64,000 nucleotides of DNA from Candidatus Uhrbacteria bacterium (lineage in GTDB: Bacteria > Patescibacteriota > Patescibacteriia > JACQRZ01): positions 7,450 to 71,449 of the forward strand of contig JACQSC010000004.1 in assembly GCA_016206155.1 (NCBI GenBank). Reading direction: 5' to 3'. The notes below the pieces were generated by a model, which was not told the DNA's origin, ran no database searches, and saw only the letters and a list, made by a program, of their open reading frames with translations. This document shows, in pieces, positions 3,383-57,530 of the stretch (position 1 is the first letter of the stretch; each line of letters starts with the position of its first letter). Both the position numbers and the translations under genes were made by a program.

Positions 3383-4170
3383 ACCCGATACTCAAGCACC
3401 GTATAACCGACTCCAAACGGAGCTTCATATGAGAGAAGGTGCGTGTTCCATGAAAGAGAATCAAGGATTCCGCGTAGAACAATGCTGGGCTGCACTGCAC
3501 AGGCGTTCAGCCTCCGAACATCCTCTCTTTTTATCGAAAGCAGCGCGTCGGGAGCTTTTTTTCGCAATGCATCGATAAACATGTAGTCGAAAGGAAGACA
3601 TATTTTTTCATGTTCCTCTTTCTTTCCCTTTTTAACGCAATGCGCGCAGTCACCGGCCGCTAGACAGATGATGCGCTTTGCCGACCTCTGAAGCGTGCTC
3701 GTGAGCGCGCACCCGAAGGCAAATAAAGCGCGTGTATCAGTATCAGGGGGTTGAACAATGACGACCTTTATTGGAAGCCCCTCAAAAAGCGTGAGTAACG
3801 GGATGCCTGCAGTGTATTCCGGATAGTCGTTGCTGATAAGAGCAAGGGAGATATGCGCGTCACGTATATTGCCCTTGATTTCGGTGCCGAGCACCGTATC
3901 ACAGGCGAATGAACCCTTTGTTACGAGATCGCCGAACTTGCTTACATCGACACAATACTGCTGCGCCAGCTGGAGCTCGAAAACGGTTCGCCGGCGTCGC
4001 CCTTGTTCAGGCGTTTTAATTAACACGACGGTATCAACACCAAGATTGGCGCATGACGCTTTGAGCGTGGCCAATCCTTCAAGCGTCTTTACAAGCATGT
4101 CGTGAGCATCTTTTCCAATTGATGGGAGAAGGAGTGGAGAGTGCGGAATGAGGGCAGCAGAGACAATCAT
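3379..4170 (-). CDS. LigB/MEMO1-superfamily (class III extradiol dioxygenase subunit B-like) protein
   Basis: N-terminus MIVSAALIPHSPLL resembles the LigB-family HxP start; length about 260 aa. Confidence 0.45.
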   Translation of the reverse strand: MIVSAALIPHSPLLLPSIGKDAHDMLVKTLEGLATLKASCANLGVDTVVLIKTPEQGRRRRTVFELQLAQQYCVDVSKFGDLVTKGSFACDTVLGTEIKGNIRDAHISLALISNDYPEYTAGIPLLTLFEGLPIKVVIVQPPDTDTRALFAFGCALTSTLQRSAKRIICLAAGDCAHCVKKGKKEEHEKICLPFDYMFIDALRKKAPDALLSIKREDVRRLNACAVQPSIVLRGILDSLSWNTHLLSYEAPFGVGYTVLEYRV

Positions 4171-5623: not shown

Positions 5624-8275
5624 TTATGTCGCAGCGGTCGCGGCGGCAAGTTCTTTTGCGTTTGCAATGATGATCGTTTCATCCTTGGCATCGATTTGGA
5701 CGGTGTCGCCCTCCTTTACGCTGCCATCGACGATCTTGAGCGCAAGTTCATTGAGGATACAGTTTTGGACCGCGCGCTTAAGCGGGCGGGCGCCATAGAG
5801 CGGATCGTAGCCGCGTTTTGCCAGAAAATTGACAAGCGCTTCGGTAAATTCAACGGTGATATCCTGCTTTGTCAGGCGTTCGCGCACCTCTTCAAGCTGA
5901 AGCGCAACGATATGCTGTATCTGTTTTTCCGAGAGGGGATGAAAGATGATGATTTCTGTAATGCGATTGAGAAACTCCGGCTTGAAGTGTTTATGGAGCA
6001 CATCCATGATCTTGTCTCGCATTTCATCTTCATCGATGATCTTTGATGCGCGCTCCCCGGAAGAAAAGCCCAATGACGCCTGGCGTAAAAGATCTCCGCC
6101 AAGATTCGACGTCATGATGATAATGGTGTTCTTAAAGTTCACTTTTCGTCCTTTCGCGTCGGTAATATGTCCGTCGTCAAGAATTTGCAGAAGCACGTTA
6201 AATATCTCGGGATGCGCTTTTTCAATTTCATCAAAGAGGATTACGCTGTAGGGCTTGCGGCGGATTTTTTCCGTAAGCTGTCCGCCTTCATCATAGCCGA
6301 CATAGCCAGGGGGGGAACCGATCAGGCGAGAGACGGAATGCTTCTCGCCAAACTCGCTCATGTCGACGCGAATCAATGCTTGTTCGTCGTTGAACATAAA
6401 CTCCGCAAGACTCTTTGCCAGTTTTGTTTTTCCAACGCCGGTCGGACCGATGAAGAGGAATGAGCCGATGGGCTGCTGCTCTTCGGAAAGTCCTGCGCGC
6501 GATCGGCGCAATGCGTTGGCAACCGCCAGGATTGCTTCCTGTTGTCCGACAACTCGCTGTGAAAGAATGTCCTCTGCAGTTTTGAGCTTTTCAGCCTCGC
6601 TTTGAAGAATTTTCATAGCCGGAATGCCTGTCCATCGCGCAATGACCGCAGCGATCTCTTCCTCGGTAACTTCTTCTTTAAGGAAGCGGTGCTTTCGCTG
6701 AAGCGCGGTGAGGCGCTGCATCGTCTTTTTTAAGTCCTTCTCCATCTGGGGAATGATGACGTGGCGGATCTCCGCGACGCGTTGAATATCGACGCGCCTC
6801 TCGGCAATATCTTCTTCTTGTTTGAGTTTATCTATTTTTTTTCTGATGTCGCGGATTTCGGTAATCAACTCTTTTTCGTTTTTCCAGTCGATCTCGAGCT
6901 TCTGCGCCTGCTCTTTGGTCTCGGCAAGTTCTTTTTCAAGCTCCTTCAGGCGCGCCTTTGCATGTTTATCCGATTCTTTGGAAAGCGCCTGTTTTTCAAT
7001 CTCCAGCTTCAGGATCGTTCGTTTGAGCCGGTCGAGTTCGACGGGTTGGCTGTCGATTTGAAGCCGGATTGCCGATGTCGCTTCATCAATGCAATCAATT
7101 GCCTTATCCGGCAGAAAGCGGTCAGCAATATATCGATGAGAGAGGTGAGTGGCAGCAACAATAGCCGCATCGGTAATACGGACTCCGTGATGAATTTCGT
7201 ATTTTTCCTTGATACCGCGCAGAATGGCGACGGTATCGTCAACCGTCGGCTCGACAACGAGTACGGGCTGGAAGCGGCGCTCAAACGCGGCATCCCGTTC
7301 AATATATTTCTGATATTCCTTCAGCGTCGTCGCGCCGATGGTCCGCAGCTCACCGCGCGCCAGGGCGGGTTTAAGCATATTTGATGCGTCAATTGCGCCT
7401 TCAGCGCCTCCCGCTCCCACTACGGTATGCAGCTCATCGACAAACAGGATCACCTGGCCGTTCTTGCTTGTGATTTCTTTGAGCACCGCTTTAAGGCGAT
7501 CCTCAAAGTCTCCACGGAATTTTGTTCCCGCAACAAGCGACCCCATGTCAAGCGCAAGAATCTCTTTCTCCTTCAGCGATTCGGGGACGTCGCCGGAAAC
7601 AATGCGCTGGGCAAGCCCCTCAACAATGGCGGTTTTTCCAACACCCGCCTCACCGATAAGAACGGGATTATTTTTCGTCCTGCGCGAAAGCACCTGAATG
7701 ACGCGGCGGATTTCCTCATCGCGTCCGATCACGGGATCAAGTTTTTCGTGGCGCGCTTGATCCGTAAGATTCACTGCATATTTACTGAGCGCCTGGTATT
7801 TGCTCTCCGGATCAGGGTCGGTGACTTTTTGCGTTCCGCGTAACTGGGCAAGAATACGCAGGACAGCATCGTAGTCGATTTTATAAAGTTTAAGAATTTT
7901 TTCCGCCGGAGAGGGGGTTTGAATAAGCGCGAGAAAAAGGTGCTCGGTACTGATATACTCATCGCGAATATTTTTCGCCTCTTTCTCTGCTTGATTGAGA
8001 ATTTGCGCGATCTCCTTTGAGATATAGATCTGGGCGGTGCCCCCTCCTGAGACGTAGGGGATAAAGCGAAGCTCTTCCTCGAGCTCCTGTTCAAGGGTTG
8101 TAACAGGTATCTCGAGTTTTTGCAGAAGACCCGAAACAATGCCTTCTTGTTGGCGGACGAGAGAGAGAAGAAGATGGAGCGAGGTGATTTCTTGATGGTT
8201 GCGTTCGGCGGTTAGCTTGTGCGCATGTTGAAGCGCTTCCTGCGCCCGGGTCGTAAAGTTATTATTTTCCGGCAT
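5624..8275 (-). CDS. clpB: ATP-dependent chaperone ClpB
   Basis: Two AAA+ modules ([16 protein letters not shown]), long coiled-coil middle domain, Clp N-domain. Confidence 0.95.
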
Positions 8276-9275: not shown

Positions 9276-9515
9276 ATGAAGGAAATTTCACCAAATATTG
9301 TTATTGATCCACTGGTACGATTCGGAAAGCCGATCATCAAAGGAACAAGAATAACCGTTGAAGAAGCGCTTGGTTTTCTTCGGAGCGGGATGACGTACGA
9401 CGAAATATATCAAGAGTATGAACTGACCCCAGAACAACTGCGGTGTGTCATTGATTATGCAGCTGCGTTTGTTGCTGGCGAAAACGTTCAGCAATTCAGA
9501 ACCATGGAAGCATGA
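9276..9515 (+). CDS. DUF433 domain protein (putative antitoxin)
   Basis: GKPIIKGTRITVEEALGFLRSGMTYDEI matches the DUF433 core. Confidence 0.7.
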   Translation: MKEISPNIVIDPLVRFGKPIIKGTRITVEEALGFLRSGMTYDEIYQEYELTPEQLRCVIDYAAAFVAGENVQQFRTMEA

Positions 9516-9871
9516 TGTTTTTTATTGACAGCAACCTTCCTTACTCTGCAAAACAGGCGTTCCTTCAATACGGAAAAGCATTACACACACGAGATGTCGG
9601 CTTGAAAGATGCCCCAGATATAGTTGTGCACGCATATGCTGTTTCACAAAATGCGATTTTAGTAACGCAAGATTTAGAGTTTAGTAACCTAACCCTTTTT
9701 TCTTATCCAAGGGGAACAGGACTCATTATTTTGCGTATTCCTTCATTTTATCGGAAGCAGTACATTGAAAAGTTTATAGATACATTTCTTTCCGAACATG
9801 GCCGTAATGATTTTACGAACGCTGTTACTGTTGTGCAGCCGGGGTGGATTCGAAGACGGCCGATTGAATAA
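9512..9871 (+). CDS. DUF5615 (PIN-like) domain protein, partner of DUF433
   Basis: FFIDSNLP...ILVTQDLEF pattern; 4-nt overlap with the upstream gene. Confidence 0.65.
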   Translation: MMFFIDSNLPYSAKQAFLQYGKALHTRDVGLKDAPDIVVHAYAVSQNAILVTQDLEFSNLTLFSYPRGTGLIILRIPSFYRKQYIEKFIDTFLSEHGRNDFTNAVTVVQPGWIRRRPIE

Positions 9872-9876
9872 TTTTT

Positions 9877-10434
9877 ATGTACCTCTTCATTCATGCAGCA
9901 GAACGAGAGTATGCGTATCTCCTGCTCGTTGGCAAAAGCATGCCCCGCACCACGATGCGGGGTAAGGAATTGTTAGAATTCCTTACTTTTGGTGACCTCG
10001 TTGTTTATACAAAGTACCTTGTGTATCGGGGAAAGAAATCCCCCGATGTGTTGCGCGGCATCGATGATCTACTGAATCAATTTGGTCTCGCAGCAAAAAG
10101 TCTGAAGGGCATCTGCGTGCTTTCCGGTCCGGGGCAATTTTCGTTTTTGCGAACATCGGTGGTAACTGCCAACACTTTTGGGTGGGCGTTGAACATTCCG
10201 GTTGTTGGTATTTGCGACAAGAAAATGGTGTCTGGTTCCAAGAAAATGGTGTCAGGTACAATTTCCGAAGAAATTGAACCAGACACCATTTTCTCAGACA
10301 CCATTTTCTCGCATAACACCATTTTGTTCATCACGCGCGGTCTCAAAAAGCTCTCGCGCACAAAACGTTTTCGTCCGGTTGTCCCGGAGTACGGCAGAGA
10401 GCCCAACATCACGACGCCGAAGAAAAGAATATAA
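9877..10434 (+). CDS. tsaB: TsaB (YeaZ)-like N-terminal domain protein carrying an in-frame palindromic repeat insertion
   Basis: LSGPGQFSFLRTSVVTANTFGWALNIPVVGI matches the TsaB GPGSFTGLRIG...A..LP..G motif; the C-terminal part is atypical. Confidence 0.5.
   Translation: MYLFIHAAEREYAYLLLVGKSMPRTTMRGKELLEFLTFGDLVVYTKYLVYRGKKSPDVLRGIDDLLNQFGLAAKSLKGICVLSGPGQFSFLRTSVVTANTFGWALNIPVVGICDKKMVSGSKKMVSGTISEEIEPDTIFSDTIFSHNTILFITRGLKKLSRTKRFRPVVPEYGREPNITTPKKRI
10221..10325. repeat. 105-bp nested palindromic element: 2x GAAAATGGTGTC(A/T)GG, central palindrome, then 2.5x inverted copies
   Basis: Direct reading; the same 15-nt termini recur at 14769..14822. Confidence 0.85.
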
Positions 10435-10545: not shown

Positions 10546-10821
10546 ATGCAACTCGCGCGTATAAGCTCGCAGAAACAAATAACCATTCCCTCAAAGCTTT
10601 TTCGAAAACTTAAGCTTGATATCGGAGACCATATTGGCATTTCTGAAGAGAATGGCACGCTCGTTTTGCGCCCCTATAAACTCATTCCAAAGGATCAGCT
10701 CTGGTACTGGACAGAGGAGTGGCAAAAGATGGAACGAGAGGCGGACGAGGACATCGCCGCAGGCCGTGTGTCGGGACCCTTTACAACGGTTGAGGAGTTT
10801 ATGAAGGATCTCAAAGCGTAA
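10546..10821 (+). CDS. AbrB/MazE/SpoVT-family antitoxin
   Basis: QKQITIPSKLFRKLKLDIGDHI swapped-hairpin motif; immediately upstream of a RelE-like ORF. Confidence 0.7.
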   Translation: MQLARISSQKQITIPSKLFRKLKLDIGDHIGISEENGTLVLRPYKLIPKDQLWYWTEEWQKMEREADEDIAAGRVSGPFTTVEEFMKDLKA

Positions 10822-10828
10822 GGAGTGT

Positions 10829-11086
10829 ATGCAGATTCTTCGTACCCGTTCTTTTGAGCGCGAGTTTGTGAAGTTGCCGAACGATGTTCGGGAGCGATTT
10901 GTGCAAAAGCTCGATTTTTTTCTTTCAGACCCATTTCATCCTTCTCTCCGCTCCAAGAAAATGCAAGGAAGAATAGATATTTGGGAAGTGAGTATAACCA
11001 TGAACTATCGCTTTACATTTGATAGAGATGGTGGCGTGATCCATCTCCGTCGAATTGGGACGCACGATATCCTTAACAACCCCTAA
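10829..11086 (+). CDS. type II toxin RelE/ParE family
   Basis: 85-aa ORF with a RelE/ParE-like pattern (FVKLPNDVRERF...GRIDIWEV...RFTF...IHL). Confidence 0.75.
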   Translation: MQILRTRSFEREFVKLPNDVRERFVQKLDFFLSDPFHPSLRSKKMQGRIDIWEVSITMNYRFTFDRDGGVIHLRRIGTHDILNNP

Positions 11087-11087
11087 T

Positions 11088-12332
11088 GTGGATCTTTTTG
11101 ATTCCCACTTACAGTCCAAAAACCATGCGCCGCTTGCCGATAGGATGCGGCCTACTACGATCGATGAGATTGTGGGGCAGGATCATATCTTGGGGCAAGG
11201 AAAAGTATTGCGTACGCTGATTGAAAAAGATCAACTTCGCTCGATTATCTTCTGGGGTCAGCCCGGGACCGGAAAAACGACTATTGCATCAGTCATTGCG
11301 CGGTCGACCGGTGCGGATTTTGTCGCACTCTCTGCCGTGAACACCGGTGTAAAAGAGGCGCGCGTGGTTATTGAGAAAGCAAAGGATTCATTAAAATTTC
11401 ACCACAAGCGGACCATTCTTTTTATCGACGAGATTCATCGCTTTAGCAAATCACAGCAAGACGCGTTTTTGCCCGCTGTAGAGGACGGCACAATTATTTT
11501 GATAGGCGCGACAACGGAGAATCCTTCGTTTGAGGTGAACTCTGCCTTGCTTTCGCGTTCGCGGGTCTTTGTGCTTAATGCGCTCAACGACGAAGCGCTT
11601 TCTCATATTCTTGATCGGGGACTGAATATGGTGTCTGAAATGGAGTCAGGCGCAGATCCCATTTCACTTGACGAGACAGCGCGCCGCGCACTTATTGATG
11701 CATCTAATGGCGATGCACGCACACTTCTTAACATGCTTGAATATGCTTTACTCTTGATTGGTGATAAAAAAGTAATTGGCTTGCCTGTGGTGCAAGAGGC
11801 AATTCAACAGAGCATGCTGAGATACGATAAAAATGGAGAAGAACATTACAATGTCATATCCGCGTTTATCAAAAGCATGCGCAACTCGGATGCCAATGCG
11901 GCGCTGTATTGGATGGCGCGTATGATTATGGCGGGGGAGGATCCGCTTTTCATTGCGCGGCGCATGGTCGTGTTCGCATCAGAAGATGTGGGACTTGCCG
12001 ATCCCAAGGCAATCATGGTCGCCACTTCTGTTTTTCAGGCAGTGCACGCAATCGGTATGCCGGAGGCGCGTATTCCGCTTGCGCACTGCGCGGTGTATTT
12101 GTCAAAGGCGCCACGAAATAACTCCGCATACATGGGTATTGAAGCGGCGCTCTCTGACGCGAAGGAGCACGGCAATCTTCCGGTCCCGCTCCATTTGCGC
12201 AACGCCCCGACAAAGCTGATGAAAGACTTGGACTATGGCAAAGGGTATCAGTATGCGCACGACTTCAAGGAAAAAATAGCAGATATGCAGTGCATGCCCG
12301 ACGAGTTGAAGGACAGGCGATACCTTTTTTGA
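11088..12332 (+). CDS. rarA: replication-associated recombination protein A (MgsA/RarA)
   Basis: AAA+ Walker A GQPGTGKTT, sensor motifs, MgsA C-terminal domain; GTG at 11088 follows the relE stop (the track ORF starts at TTG 11055). Confidence 0.9.
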   Translation: MDLFDSHLQSKNHAPLADRMRPTTIDEIVGQDHILGQGKVLRTLIEKDQLRSIIFWGQPGTGKTTIASVIARSTGADFVALSAVNTGVKEARVVIEKAKDSLKFHHKRTILFIDEIHRFSKSQQDAFLPAVEDGTIILIGATTENPSFEVNSALLSRSRVFVLNALNDEALSHILDRGLNMVSEMESGADPISLDETARRALIDASNGDARTLLNMLEYALLLIGDKKVIGLPVVQEAIQQSMLRYDKNGEEHYNVISAFIKSMRNSDANAALYWMARMIMAGEDPLFIARRMVVFASEDVGLADPKAIMVATSVFQAVHAIGMPEARIPLAHCAVYLSKAPRNNSAYMGIEAALSDAKEHGNLPVPLHLRNAPTKLMKDLDYGKGYQYAHDFKEKIADMQCMPDELKDRRYLF

Positions 12333-12368
12333 TGAACTCAAAAAATAGCGAAAGGGTAAAATCAACGG

Positions 12369-12408
12369 CTAAACCGGTTTAGCCGTTGATTTTTTGTTAT
12401 AACAGCAA
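12369..12408. terminator. rho-independent terminator after rarA (18-bp perfect stem followed by a T-run)
   Basis: aaaatcaacggctaaacc / ggtttagccgttgatttt followed by ttgtt. Confidence 0.75.
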
Positions 12409-13469: not shown

Positions 13470-14366
13470 ATGATGATACAGCATAAAACGGTTTTACGAG
13501 AGGAGGCGATTCGTTACTTAGGTGTTCTTTCAAATCATCATTACGTTGACTGCACATTGGGCGGCGGCGGCCACACAGAAGCCATACTGGATCGTAACGG
13601 GACAAAAGGACGCGTCATAGCGTTTGAGCTTGATGCTGATACGATTGTACGGACGAAGAGGCGTCTCAAGCGTTTTGGCGCACGATTGATTGTTGTTGAG
13701 GATAATTTTAGAAGTATTGGGAGAGTAACAGAATATGGTATGCCGATCTCCGGAATACTCTACGACCTTGGTACGTCGATGGACCTTTTGAAAAGCAGCG
13801 GTCGCGGATTTTCCTTCCTTGTCGATGAACCGCTTGATATGCGATTCTCTCTTTCAACAGAGAGAACAGCCGCAGATCTTATCAGAACAACACGGGAATC
13901 TGAGCTTGCCGATCTCATTTTTCGATACGGAGAGGAGCGATTGAGCCGCCGCATCGCCCATGCAATAATGCAGACACGTACGCACACTTCTATCACGACC
14001 ACGCGCGAGCTTGTTTCGGTCATTGAGCGGGCGGTGCCGCCATCATATTGTCGAGGTCGTATCCATCCAGCAACACGAACCTTTCAGGCGTTGCGCATCG
14101 CAGTCAATGATGAATTGGAGTGCCTTTCAGAGTCCCTTGAGCAGGCAATGGCGCTTATTGAAAGGGGTGGACGCATCGTCGTCATTTCGTTCCACTCGCT
14201 TGAAGATAGGATTGTGAAACAGTTCTTTCGAATACAAAAATTAAAAAAAACAGGCATCATTTTAACGAAAAAGCCGATTACTCCTTCGCGCGAAGAGATT
14301 GAGAAAAATCCAAACTGCCGCAGTGCAAAACTTCGCGCGCTGGAAATACTAACCCCTAGACCCTAA
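13470..14366 (+). CDS. rsmH: 16S rRNA (cytosine1402-N4)-methyltransferase RsmH
   Basis: DCTLGGGGH SAM-binding motif, mraW family layout, dcw position. Confidence 0.95.
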   Translation: MMIQHKTVLREEAIRYLGVLSNHHYVDCTLGGGGHTEAILDRNGTKGRVIAFELDADTIVRTKRRLKRFGARLIVVEDNFRSIGRVTEYGMPISGILYDLGTSMDLLKSSGRGFSFLVDEPLDMRFSLSTERTAADLIRTTRESELADLIFRYGEERLSRRIAHAIMQTRTHTSITTTRELVSVIERAVPPSYCRGRIHPATRTFQALRIAVNDELECLSESLEQAMALIERGGRIVVISFHSLEDRIVKQFFRIQKLKKTGIILTKKPITPSREEIEKNPNCRSAKLRALEILTPRP

Positions 14367-14385
14367 ACCCTAAACCCTAAACCCT
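14353..14385. repeat. CCCTAGA/CCCTAAA heptamer tandem repeat (4.5 units) overlapping the rsmH stop codon
   Basis: cccctagaccctaaaccctaaaccctaaaccc; rsmH ends ...LTPRP* with its TAA inside the repeat. Confidence 0.85.
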
Positions 14386-14390
14386 TCTTT

Positions 14391-14768
14391 GTGTCGATCA
14401 GTTTCAAAAGAATAAAAAGCAAGTGGACATCAACCGAAGCTATTCGTAGCCAAAAAATTGCTCTCTCTTGCCATAAGCTGTCACGGGCGCACATTGGTGT
14501 TCTCTTGACAATCGCCGTTTTTTCACTAGTCTATCTCGTACAAGTGAATACGCTTGCGACAAAGGGATATGCAATTCGAGAGCTCGAGCGGGATATTGCG
14601 ATTCAAAAGAAGGAATACGAACGGCTTCAGCTTGATATCATAGAAAGACAGAGCATGGGCGCACTGCAGGAGCGTATTGCTCAATTGGGCTTTGTTCCGG
14701 CTGATCGCATTGATTACCTTTCACCGACCGCTGCGGTTGCGACGGCTGTTGCAAAACCATCACGCTGA
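14391..14768 (+). CDS. ftsL: FtsL/DivIC-like cell division protein
   Basis: Single TM helix plus coiled coil; located between rsmH and ftsI. Confidence 0.55.
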   Translation: MSISFKRIKSKWTSTEAIRSQKIALSCHKLSRAHIGVLLTIAVFSLVYLVQVNTLATKGYAIRELERDIAIQKKEYERLQLDIIERQSMGALQERIAQLGFVPADRIDYLSPTAAVATAVAKPSR

Positions 14769-14822
14769 GGTGAAAATGGTGTCAGGAATAGTTTCTGCAA
14801 AAACTATTCCTGACACCATTTT
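14769..14822. repeat. 54-bp perfect palindrome with GTGAAAATGGTGTCAGG termini (second copy of the 10221 element family); likely intergenic hairpin or terminator
   Basis: 25-bp arms, 4-nt loop, directly after the ftsL stop. Confidence 0.85.
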
Positions 14823-14913
14823 CACTAGGAGAGAAGTGTAATCCGCATGGGGCGCGACACGTCTCGCGAGAACAACCAGCGACTTTTCTGCGCGCTGGTT
14901 GTTTTTGATTTGA

Positions 14914-16857
14914 GTGGATTTTGATACAATAGATACTATGATGACATTTCGTTCACGTACGAAACGAAGATCTGTGCGCGCTCATCAATTGGGCGGTTTC
15001 CATGCAATCCAGTCGCTTAAAGCTCTTGTTCGCATTGACCGCATCAGCTTCCTGAGGGGGTGCTTGTTTTTCTTCGTGCTCATATTGTTCCTGCGCCTCT
15101 TTAACCTCCAAGTTTTAAGTTACGAGGACTATCGGACGGCAGCGGAGGGCGAACATCAATTATTGAGAAAAATTCATCCCGACAGAGGAAGTATCTTCCT
15201 GCGAGAACGTTCTGCCAACGGGAGCGCAAACCAGTATCTGATGGAAGTTGAGGGGGAAAAGCTTTTTCCCGCGGTAACGAATCGTGAGTATATGCTCGTC
15301 TATGCGGTGCCAAAATCAATCAGTGACCCAGAAAAGGTCGCCGATCAACTTATGCCGCTCTTTGACATTCCAAAAGAGGAGCCAAAGAGCGATGATGACA
15401 ACAACGGTGACAAGGATGGCATTGATCCGCGCGAAGAGCGGCGTGCGTGGCTCGTTCAAAGACTGTCAAAGAAGAACGATTCGTACGAAGTGATCAAGAG
15501 GAAGGTGCCGGCGGCAAGCTGGGATATAATCAAAAAGCTGTACATTGGCGGAATCAACGCAAGCCCGGAAAGCTATCGGTTTTATCCCGAAAAGGGATTG
15601 GGCGGGCATCTTTTTGGGTTCGTGGGGTATAGCGGCGAGAGCGTCAAGGGGCTGTATGGGCTCGAGGGTTATTTTGACGATATTCTGAAAGGTAAGGAAG
15701 GATCTTTGCGATTCGAGTCAGATGCCCTTGGCGCGCTGATTCCCATCGGGGAAAAGCGCGTTGTTGAGGCGGTTCAGGGAAGCAACCTTGTATTAACGAT
15801 TGACCGAACAATTCAGCTCATGGCGTGCGATCGCCTTTCAAAATGGGTTCTCAAACACGGCGCCGATGGAGGGACCGTTGTTATTATGAATCCCAATACC
15901 GGAGCCCTCTATGCCATGTGCAGCGTACCCGACTTTGATCCTGAAAACTATTTTGATGCAGATGTGAAGCAGTATCCGAATCCCTCAATTTTTACTCCCT
16001 ATGAACCTGGTTCAATATTTAAGCCGTTTACCATGGCAATGGGCATTGACAGTGAAAAGGTTGCCCCGGCAACGACCTATGTTGATACCGGCGAGGTAAA
16101 AATTGGATCGTTCACCATCAAAAATTCTGACAGCAAAGCGCACGGCAAACAAACCATGATGGATGTTCTCGATCAATCACTCAATACGGGCGTGATCTTC
16201 GTCGCGCGCAAAGTCGGTATCGACGCGTTTCGTGATTACGTAAAGAATTTTGGTTTTGGGAAGCCGACAGGCATAGAGCTTGACCGGGAAGTATCCGGTA
16301 CGATCGCGGGACTGAACGAGAAGCAGGAGATTTATATGGCAACCGCATCATTCGGTCAGGGTTTGAGCGTAACGCCGCTCCAAATTACCACTGCCTACGC
16401 CGCTCTTGCCAACGGGGGCAATCTTGTGCAACCCTATGTTGTAGATGAGATTATCAAGTCTGACGGCAGCCGCCATCGCACCAATCCAAAAGTAGTCCGA
16501 CGGGTCATATCGGAAAAAACTTCAACACTCATCAGCAGTATGTTGGTGAACGTTGTGCGCAAAGGACACGGGAAGCGCGCTGGTGTTGACGGCTATTACG
16601 TCGCGGGCAAAACCGGCACCGCGCAAGTTGCACGCAGTGACGGCAGGGGGTATGAGCGCGACATCACAATCGGCTCATTTGCGGGTTTTGCGCCCGTTGA
16701 TAACCCTCGGTTTGTCATGCTTGTCAAAGTAGACCATCCACGGGATGTTCAGTGGGCGGAAAGTTCCGCGGCGCCACTTTTTGGCGAATTGGCAAAATTT
16801 TTATTACAGTATTTTGAGGTGCCGCCTGATGAAACAGAATCAAGAAGCAAGAATTAA
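14914..16857 (+). CDS. ftsI: peptidoglycan D,D-transpeptidase FtsI / PBP2-type penicillin-binding protein
   Basis: SIFK (SxxK), KTGTA motif, PBP dimerisation domain; acidic low-complexity insertion. Confidence 0.9.
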   Translation: MDFDTIDTMMTFRSRTKRRSVRAHQLGGFHAIQSLKALVRIDRISFLRGCLFFFVLILFLRLFNLQVLSYEDYRTAAEGEHQLLRKIHPDRGSIFLRERSANGSANQYLMEVEGEKLFPAVTNREYMLVYAVPKSISDPEKVADQLMPLFDIPKEEPKSDDDNNGDKDGIDPREERRAWLVQRLSKKNDSYEVIKRKVPAASWDIIKKLYIGGINASPESYRFYPEKGLGGHLFGFVGYSGESVKGLYGLEGYFDDILKGKEGSLRFESDALGALIPIGEKRVVEAVQGSNLVLTIDRTIQLMACDRLSKWVLKHGADGGTVVIMNPNTGALYAMCSVPDFDPENYFDADVKQYPNPSIFTPYEPGSIFKPFTMAMGIDSEKVAPATTYVDTGEVKIGSFTIKNSDSKAHGKQTMMDVLDQSLNTGVIFVARKVGIDAFRDYVKNFGFGKPTGIELDREVSGTIAGLNEKQEIYMATASFGQGLSVTPLQITTAYAALANGGNLVQPYVVDEIIKSDGSRHRTNPKVVRRVISEKTSTLISSMLVNVVRKGHGKRAGVDGYYVAGKTGTAQVARSDGRGYERDITIGSFAGFAPVDNPRFVMLVKVDHPRDVQWAESSAAPLFGELAKFLLQYFEVPPDETESRSKN

Positions 16858-16916
16858 GAATTATGCGTGGACGTCACACCCTTGACTCTTAATTCGTAAT
16901 TCGCAATTCTTCAAGG
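16843..16916. repeat. AAGAATT-type repeat plus imperfect inverted copy (hairpin) spanning the ftsI stop
   Basis: aagaagcaagaattaagaatt ... aattcgtaattcgcaattctt. Confidence 0.7.
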
Positions 16917-52045: not shown

Positions 52046-52165
52046 AAAGAATGAAGAATCAAGAATTAAGAATTAAGAATTAAGAATTAAGAATTAAGAA
52101 TTAAGAATTAAGAGGACCCATGATATGCCTTGCTTCGTAATTCTTACTTCTTAATTCTTCATGAT
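52046..52165. repeat. (AAGAATT)x7 tandem repeat followed by an inverted partial copy (hairpin-forming), between ftsH and pilB
   Basis: Direct reading. Confidence 0.9.
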
Positions 52166-57487: not shown

Positions 57488-57496
57488 ACAAGAAAA

Positions 57497-57530
57497 GGGG
57501 TTAGGGGTTAGGGGTTAGGGGTTAGGGGTT
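57497..57530. repeat. (GGGGTTA)x5 tandem repeat; the opposite strand supplies the last codons (TPNP) and TAA stop of nusA
   Basis: Direct reading. Confidence 0.9.

Follow-up and report, generated by a model that had tools for sequence, protein, structure and literature searches.

A probable TIRYT-family, REPIN-like repeat cluster resides in frame in a TsaB-like gene of Candidatus Uhrbacteria

Introduction

TIRYT genes are flanked by inverted repeats that share the sequence GGGGWSAS, and these repeats occur as dimers and clusters (Di Nocera et al. 2013, PMC3733652). Subclass 2.1 of the TnpA_Y1 transposases corresponds to the Group-1 RAYTs (Bertels et al. 2017, PMC5581495), which are the TIRYTs (Quentin et al. 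2018, PMC6006769). Here we describe a nested palindromic element at positions 10220 to 10327 of a 64,000-nucleotide (nt) stretch of contig JACQSC010000004.1 from Candidatus Uhrbacteria bacterium, referred to below as the window. The element lies within a short open reading frame (ORF) for a TsaB-like protein. It is probably a REPIN-like, nonautonomous doublet cluster of the TIRYT repeat family, made up of four arms and one decayed arm, which resides in frame in a permissive loop of the protein.

The family to which the element belongs resembles TIRtrons in having a Y1/HUH gene of ~230 to 240 codons, with the motifs NH.H, WE, and YIE.NP, that is flanked by inverted repeats, which in TIRtrons share GGGGWSAS. 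As in TIRtrons, single repeats, dimers, and clusters are dispersed in moderate numbers (one cluster and one dimer in the window), and genes of this type in Xanthomonadales genomes and in metagenome-assembled genomes (MAGs) are bordered by the arm GG[T/G]GTCAGG. The differences are that the host belongs to the Patescibacteria (Uhrbacteria), with no TIRYT in the 64 kb; that the window copy is intragenic and in frame; and that an exact 12-mer is found over a very wide range of GC content and lineages, which is not described in PMC3733652 or PMC6006769.

The REP (repetitive extragenic palindrome)/REPIN-RAYT systems (Group 2/3; for example, Escherichia coli TnpA_REP and the Pseudomonas REPINs) also have an inverted pair of short repeats that, with a short spacer, makes one long hairpin. 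Shared, too, are the BIME-like clusters of alternating orientation, the mostly extragenic location just downstream of genes, and the single-copy Y1 transposase gene flanked by repeats. However, the arm consensus described below (rAAAAATGGTGTCAGGnACnaTTT) lacks the GT[AG]G tetranucleotide 0 to 2 nt 5' of the hairpin foot that is the criterion of PMC6006769, the partner protein falls short of the NCBIfam REP_Tyr_transpos cut-off and has a C-terminal extension, and single arms of the window subfamily are not themselves hairpins.

Rickettsia palindromic elements (RPEs) are similar in behavior: they too are in-frame palindromic inserts in a reduced genome that add a surface peptide and do not destroy the protein. 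In contrast to the elements described here, RPEs are confined to Rickettsia, and there is no obvious sequence relation, although no comparison was made. RPE-1 elements are also longer, at ~100 to 150 bp. The subterminal hairpins of IS200/IS605 elements and their miniature derivatives share Y1/HUH chemistry on single-stranded DNA (ssDNA) hairpins and the absence of a target-site duplication, but their left and right ends are asymmetric, they have a fixed tetra- or pentanucleotide target, and their TnpA belongs to subclass 1.1, with a Y...Q motif, whereas the protein found here has Y...NP.

This kind of element is already known, as are the RPEs and in-frame intragenic REP dimers; intragenic dimers encoding 20 to 30 amino acids (aa) have been reported, and RPE-4 and RPE-6 have been equated with CGTC-tagged REPs that have no associated transposase (PMC3733652). 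New are the subfamily, its REPIN-like anatomy in a subclass for which REP-like partners had been reported missing, the presence of such repeats in Patescibacteria, and their repeated residence in loops of TsaB-like proteins.

Results

Anatomy of the element

In the element, a short palindrome is surrounded by copies of (A)GAAAATGGTGTC(T/A)GG, two of them direct, two inverted, and one degenerate; the order is AGAAAATGGTGTCTGGTTC-ca-AGAAAATGGTGTCAGGTACAATTTC-cgaa-GAAATTGAACCAGACACCATTTTCT-CAGACACCATTTTCT-cgc-ATAACACCATTTTGT (Table 1). A pattern search of the 64 kb found exact GAAAATGGTGTCWGG at 10221 (+), 10242 (+), 10279 (-), 14772 (+), and 14809 (-); there was one mismatch at 10294 (-) and there were three at 10312 (-). 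With up to three mismatches allowed, there were 12 matches to GAAAATGGTGTCWGG versus 3.1 expected, a number reached in 0 of 100 shuffles, and a search with a shorter core gave the same result. The two inner arms, 25 nt each, are 92% complementary across a 4-nt loop, and the 136-nt region folds at -60.5 kcal/mol (z = -9.3). The nested palindrome that a sequence-only reading had picked out is therefore real, and it far exceeds what chance would give. The copy at 10313 to 10327 is either a decayed arm or a matter of chance or target-site similarity. We also considered that each arm might be a REP hairpin by itself; this is true in some subfamilies (-5.7 to -7.2 kcal/mol) and fails for the window arms.

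Table 1 Features of the two repeat loci and the host gene in the window
Feature	Position	Strand	Sequence	Basis
Host gene, short TsaB-like ORF, 185 aa	9877-10434	+		ORF list; Pfam PF00814
Arm L1, outer left	10220-10238	+	AGAAAATGGTGTCTGGTTC	Exact motif; 100% complementary to 10276-10294 (19 nt) and, over 15 nt (10220-10234), to 10295-10309
Arm L2, inner left	10241-10265	+	AGAAAATGGTGTCAGGTACAATTTC	Fits family consensus rAAA-AATGGTGTCAGG-nACnaTTT
Apical loop of inner hairpin	10266-10269	.	CGAA	Repeat finder and fold
Arm R1, inner right, inverted	10270-10294	-	GAAATTGAACCAGACACCATTTTCT	Pairs with L2 through its inner part and, without mismatch, with L1 through its outer 19 nt (minimum free energy structure)
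Arm R2, outer right, cut-off inverted copy	10295-10309	-	CAGACACCATTTTCT	One-mismatch match; direct repeat of 10280-10294, inverted repeat of 10220-10234
Degenerate third right copy	10313-10327	-	ATAACACCATTTTGT	Three-mismatch match; 73% direct repeat
Second family member, single doublet	14770-14825	.	GTGAAAATGGTGTCAGGAATAGTTTC/tgca/AAAACTATTCCTGACACCATTTTCAC	Pattern search and fold

The element is an insertion in the TsaB-like protein

The host protein is 100% identical to NCBI hypothetical protein HY623_02095 from a Candidatus Uhrbacteria MAG, where it is encoded on a 288-kb contig. Its match to the Pfam TsaD family (PF00814; E = 6.8e-10) covers residues 60 to 114 only and ends where the element starts. 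When the protein was aligned with 23 homologues (132 to 184 aa), the linker that joins the invariant IPVVG strand to the F(I/V)xxGLKK helix was ~10 residues long in 22 of them and 38 residues long in the window protein. The surplus segment is ~28 to 29 residues (residues 116 to 144, corresponding to nt 10222 to 10308, or ~29 codons). It had been read as exactly 35 codons, a figure that resulted from the coordinates chosen; the degenerate right copy encodes SHNTIL, which aligns with native residues of the homologues at the start of the helix. That the element is an insertion relative to TsaB-like homologues is borne out by this alignment. It also resides in frame, as proposed: the frames that it uses are free of stops, and the ORF is open throughout.

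AlphaFold2, run on the same alignment, gave a mean predicted local distance difference test (pLDDT) value of 78.5. The strand at residues 109 to 112 and the helix at residues 146 to 161 were predicted with confidence, and between them, at residues 123 to 142, pLDDT was <50. The model indicates that these residues form a disordered surface loop, and it is to this loop that the element is predicted to map.

A small in-frame palindrome of another kind is present in the same gene at 9938 to 9965 (CATGCCCCGCAccacgaTGCGGGGTAAG, encoding SMPRTTMRG). In the homologue P0014, this peptide (MPRTAMRVKE) forms a surplus segment of the N-terminal variable region. Taken together, these two cases seem to represent a different family of palindromic inserts, apparently in the N-terminal loop. 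The TsaB-like gene has toxin-antitoxin-like pairs on both sides (9276 to 9871 and 10546 to 11086); one consists of DUF433 and DUF5615 (PIN-like) proteins and the other of a MazE-type antitoxin and a weakly matching ParE-like toxin. At two other Uhrbacteria loci, L125 and L126, the TsaB-like gene is immediately 3' of a WecG-type glycosyltransferase gene, and the DUF433/DUF5615 pair in the window therefore looks like an insertion.

Sibling elements in other coding sequences

Other Uhrbacteria have sibling elements in their TsaB-like genes. P0003 (locus L125) has two of them: one, GGGGTCTGGCTCAATTTCG-cttg-CGAATTTGTGCCTGACCCC with its right arm duplicated, is placed two codons deeper in the linker that also holds the window element, and the other is in the N-terminal variable region; P0008 (locus L126) and P0012 have GAAAATGGGGTCTGGCTCGATTTTTG...AAATGTGCCTGACCCCATTTTC at the N-terminal site. 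These siblings carry a GGGGTCWGG core, and the family consists of T and G variants of the single core AATGG(T/G)GTC(A/T)GG. Two loops of the TsaB-like protein have taken up such elements repeatedly, the three Uhrbacteria genes having different subfamily members. We infer that this reflects selection for permissive sites in compact genomes, not targeting. Because the sibling loci were picked for their protein inserts, we claim no enrichment statistic.

A second clear in-frame intragenic case is in a metallo-β-lactamase-fold hydrolase gene of the Candidatus Desantisbacteria MAG (L002, 6960 to 7583; also L011 and L094), in which the element (KKIMMKMVKMVSGTSQSQTPFSKPVP) is just ahead of the THAHPDH motif. 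A candidate third copy in the window was rejected. The stretch at 11624 to 11665 in rarA/mgsA (ORF 11055 to 12332; GAATATGGTGTCTGAAATGGAGTCAGGCGCAGATCCCATTTC, encoding NMVSEMESGADPIS) resembles a compact left-arm/right-arm pair of the family, but there is no length insertion relative to a 79% identical homologue: the RarA of L126 has unrelated residues of nearly equal length opposite this stretch. The resemblance could be due to chance or to an old replacement. The rarA/mgsA homologue of L126 has an in-frame insertion of ~30 aa at ~7620 to 7730 (RYSEQPRNSRGPSQARNDDSGLDPGLRRDDIGEHS) that is absent from the window RarA.

The second copy in the window

The doublet at 14770 to 14825 forms a hairpin with a 26-bp perfect stem (-43.6 kcal/mol, z = -8.9). 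It begins 2 nt past the stop codon of the ORF in the ftsL position (14391 to 14768) and is upstream of an ftsI-type penicillin-binding protein (PBP) gene (14914 to 16857). This is the usual extragenic position for such repeats. A second family member had been claimed at 14769 to 14822 between ftsL and ftsI. The copy is real, and mraZ, rsmH, and the ftsI-type PBP gene were confirmed among its neighbors; the 125-aa ORF labelled ftsL has no Pfam match and is named from its position only. Pattern searches revealed no further convincing copy of the family in the 64 kb beyond these two loci.

Distribution and form of the motif

We scanned species-representative genomes with the strict inverted pair GAAAATGG...CCATTTTC. 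This identified four MAGs (Luteimonas, Candidatus Desantisbacteria, a proteobacterium, and Usitatibacteraceae) in which the arms are identical and the self-complementary core is different in each. The strict pattern missed cultured carriers because the Xanthomonadales copies read GAAATGG or AAAAGG. Metagenome contigs were scanned with AATGGTGTCWGG-N8-38-CCWGACACCATT, which gave at least 120 loci where two inverted copies of the 12-mer AATGGTGTCAGG enclose a self-complementary core that varies. By our own estimate, which was not computed by a tool, about one match would be expected by chance. The GC content of these contigs ranges from 0.32 to 0.73; the taxonomic breadth of the motif was judged from this spread and from the labels of five MAGs. 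With the second copy in the window, these loci and the four MAGs establish that the element belongs to a repeat family, as had been suggested. The motif is not an artefact of sequencing or assembly, as numerous independent assemblies, and finished genomes too, contain it beside a specific gene.

The properties of the family given here and below are those of the matches listed. The 114 unique doublets give a ~24-nt arm consensus, rAAA-AATGGTGTCAGG-nACnaTTT, and arm-arm pairing is 0.74 to 0.92 over the first eight inner positions. Outside the 12-mer, pairing decays to chance by position -7, and the arm reaches ~3 to 5 nt past the conserved block. The conserved block is internal to the arm and is not a strict terminus, contrary to the sequence-only reading. 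Subfamilies have the apical stems GGGACAATTTC, GGTACGAAATA, GGAACCATTTA, and GGCACCG, with paired changes at the tips, and extra tandem arms are frequent across the family. Long open frames span 32% of the doublets versus 78% of random positions on the same contigs, and ~8% of the doublets are inside very long ORFs; doublets are depleted in coding sequence.

On a 3.5-kb low-GC contig (L064, 1 to 3480), each gap between genes contains a hairpin of the family, and T and G variants occur together. Both variants are found within one doublet at 261 to 310, and at 1088 to 1111 there is a minimal single palindrome, TTAATGGTGCCAGGCACCATTTAA. Four other contigs (L031, L043, L075, and L082, with elements at ~5483, 4874, 1403, and 5099, respectively) share the right flank ttcgattagtttttttcccatttcactgtgaaaa after the doublet. 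In L082 the left flank and the loop differ, as though the doublet marked the edge of a cassette or of a recombined segment.

Strict, relaxed, and G-variant patterns had no match in viral contigs, and blastn of the consensus doublet had no match in plasmids. Rfam searches of the window and six loci, at both gathering and E-value thresholds, gave only tRNAs, transfer-messenger RNA, and spurious sub-threshold matches to microRNA-like hairpins; such precursor-like matches are expected because any long hairpin gives them. In the literature, full-text matches to the motif strings were all unrelated primer sequences, nothing relevant was retrieved on palindromic inserts that reside in frame in the candidate phyla radiation (CPR), and the motif is absent from the supplementary files of PMC3733652.

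Transposase genes with the same arms

In other genomes the same arm is physically linked to TIRYT genes. In the Luteimonas MAG (L001) a 232-aa ORF at 3407 to 4105 matches Pfam Y1_Tnp (IS200-like; E = 3.7e-13) and scores 61.4 bits against NCBIfam REP_Tyr_transpos (NF047646), for which the cut-off is 80. Its length and its motifs (NHAH, WE, and YIEFNP) fit TnpA_Y1 subclass 2.1 (Table 1 of PMC6006769), so that a partner is seen, outside the window genome. There is a copy of CAAAATGGTGTCAGGGACAATTTC ~55 to 80 nt upstream of the ORF, and three inverted copies begin at its 3' end. A protein search identified homologues with 76 to 82% identity in Rhodanobacter sp. Col0626, Luteimonas lutimaris, and Thermomonas sp.; each has AAA(A/T)GGTGTCAGGGACAATTT ~100 nt upstream and an inverted copy that overlaps the stop codon. 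T-variant arms flank the TIRYT genes in L001 and in L127 to L129. A more distant homologue (33% identical, L046) is followed by GAGAGGTGTCAGGCACC...GGTGCCTGACACC, a GGTGTCAGGCACC hairpin.

Five plasmid-borne homologues (41 to 51% identical) have the related flanks AAATGGGGTCAGAG, AAAGGGTCAGAG, CTGGGGTCAGAG, AAAAGGGGTCAGACCCC, and AAAGGGGACAGA. These are built on GGGGTCAGAG, GGGTCAGAG, GGGGTCAGACCCC, or GGGGACAGA and fit the published GGGGWSAS (PMC3733652, PMC6006769). Compared with GGGGWSAS, the window arms match at 7 of 8 (GGTGTCAG) or 6 of 8 (GGTGTCTG) positions, and the sibling arms of L064 (GGGGTCAG) match at all 8.

Full or partial TIRYT homologues were present at 6 of ~120 loci that had been chosen for the hairpin alone, L094 being one of the six. 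Roughly judged, this is far above the yield of a gene that is present in roughly a single copy. Two fragments look like decayed TIRtrons: an N-terminal TIRYT fragment that runs directly into a doublet (L024, 1022 to 1140) and a C-terminal fragment that ends in an inverted arm (L127, 11971 to 12204). The TIRYT-like gene beside the Desantisbacteria-type copies in L094 was considered as a cognate transposase and rejected, its flanks being different (AAAAGGGGACG). A phmmer search of the TIRYT against PDB gave no match at E <= 0.01.

Other repeats in the window

A different repeat family is present at 52060 to 52162, where ~8 tandem AAGAATT heptamers (52060 to 52115) precede a copy that is partly inverted, CGTAATTCTTACTTCTTAATTCTT. 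The family recurs in shorter form across the stop codon of the ftsI-type gene (16836 to 16910). At 57495 to 57530 there are four to five tandem GGGGTTA copies (AGGGGTTAGGGGTTAGGGGTTAGGGGTT), a telomere-like heptamer run. Just 3' of rarA/mgsA, at 12358 to 12393, is a perfect 36-bp palindrome, AAAATCAACGGCTAAACC/GGTTTAGCCGTTGATTTT, that is unrelated in sequence to the element in the TsaB-like gene.

Discussion

How the element may have arisen

On ssDNA, two inverted ~24-nt arms would form a long hairpin. By analogy with IS200/IS605 TnpA and E. coli TnpA_REP, a Y1 enzyme could recognize, cut, and rejoin such hairpins without a target-site duplication, and extra arms may come from slippage or template switching within the palindrome. 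We infer that the enzyme is a TIRYT that acts on ssDNA and that one is, or once was, present in this Uhrbacteria lineage. The copy in the TsaB-like gene would persist because the net insertion is a multiple of three (~29 codons), the frame is stop-free, and the short surface linker is tolerant.

Several points weigh against assigning the element to the TIRYT repeats. Neither a TIRYT nor any other Y1 homologue was found in the 64-kb window, L125 (16 kb), or L126 (8.6 kb), ~89 kb of Uhrbacteria sequence in all, so for this genome it is the identity of the motif that makes the link. The window has two family loci only, from which a multicopy state in the genome is not established. The invariance of the 12-mer among the metagenome matches is by construction, because the 12-mer was fixed in the search pattern, and independent support for conservation of the core comes only from the loci reached through the transposase protein. 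In the window arm (GGTGTCAG) the third G of GGGGWSAS is replaced by T, a single mismatch to that consensus, and single arms of the window subfamily fold at ~ -1 kcal/mol, no better than shuffles. We know of no TIRYT that has been shown biochemically to move such repeats. Finally, Quentin et al. (PMC6006769) found no REP-like sequences near subclass 2.1 genes.

Alternative explanations

The repeats might be immobile relics, old or horizontally gained, that lost their transposase and whose palindromes are kept by template-switch correction and drift. The absence of a TIRYT from the ~89 kb of Uhrbacteria sequence, the small number of loci in the window, and the decayed arm would fit this explanation, and REPs without a RAYT gene are documented (PMC6006769, PMC3733652). 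However, the near-perfect arms (19/19, 15/15, and a 26-bp perfect stem) suggest a recent origin or recent correction, and the presence of different subfamilies in three Uhrbacteria, at slightly different codons of one linker, suggests repeated insertion and not one ancient event. We consider this explanation unlikely.

Somewhat less likely still is that the genome has no TIRYT of its own and that its doublets were acquired or mobilized in trans, for example by contact with a TIRYT-carrying host bacterium, or that the near-invariant AATGG(T/G)GTCAGG core is read by some other conserved factor. If this were true, permissive protein loops would be the main refuge of such elements in the highly compact genomes of episymbionts, and small proteins of essential pathways would repeatedly gain new surface segments from them.

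The hairpins could have been selected by the host as structures (terminators or attenuators, mRNA stabilizers, or protein-binding sites) and kept for their function instead of having spread. Many members are directly 3' of stop codons, between a preceding A-run and a following T-run, the second window copy begins similarly close to a stop codon, the hairpins are very stable, and REPs elsewhere affect termination and mRNA stability (PMC3733652). But an intrinsic-terminator scan of 14300 to 15100 left the 14770 to 14825 hairpin (tail, TTTTCAC) uncalled, there was no Rfam family match, and a host function leaves the intragenic copy, the duplicated arms, and the arms at both ends of the transposase genes unexplained. 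As an account of the family it is improbable, although a secondary use by the host is compatible with a TIRYT origin.

The sequence-only reading had proposed a miniature inverted-repeat transposable element (MITE) or a palindromic repeat family. The latter stands. A classical MITE, a deletion derivative of a DDE insertion sequence that moves by cut-and-paste through its terminal inverted repeats, would likewise be short, have inverted termini and no coding capacity, and be present in multiple copies. However, among 111 doublets tested at six boundary offsets there was no target-site duplication (k = 2 to 8) beyond chance, and no direct repeat flanks either window copy; the absence of target-site duplications argues that the element is not a classical MITE. 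In addition, the conserved block is internal to the arm and the outer pairing fades gradually, the only gene found with the arm at both ends encodes a Y1/HUH transposase (RAYT/TIRYT) and not a DDE enzyme, and an rve-type neighbor gene in L129 is not flanked by arms. We regard this explanation as highly improbable.

That the segment is a native protein-level repeat (KKMVSG twice and DTIFS twice, as is visible in the translation) with an incidental DNA palindrome is effectively refuted, since the segment is missing in 22 of 23 homologues and is predicted to be disordered, and the same DNA motif is found in noncoding DNA, in other frames, and in other genes.

Implications

If the element is, as is probable, a REPIN-like cluster of the TIRYT repeat family, the present data give a concrete sequence (rAAA-AATGG[T/G]GTCAGG-nACnaTTT) and a doublet architecture for the repeats of Group-1 RAYTs/TIRYTs, and a direct biochemical assay for TIRYT activity is easy to design around the conserved core. 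Mobile DNA is thought to be scarce in Patescibacteria, and here such repeats are shown in that group. After Rickettsia, this is a second case of in-frame palindromic repeats within the genes of a reduced genome. For annotation, it means that odd short inserts of low complexity in CPR proteins (KMVSG...PDTIF and MGSGSIF...VPDPIF) can be recognized as derived from repeats and not as lineage-specific protein features.

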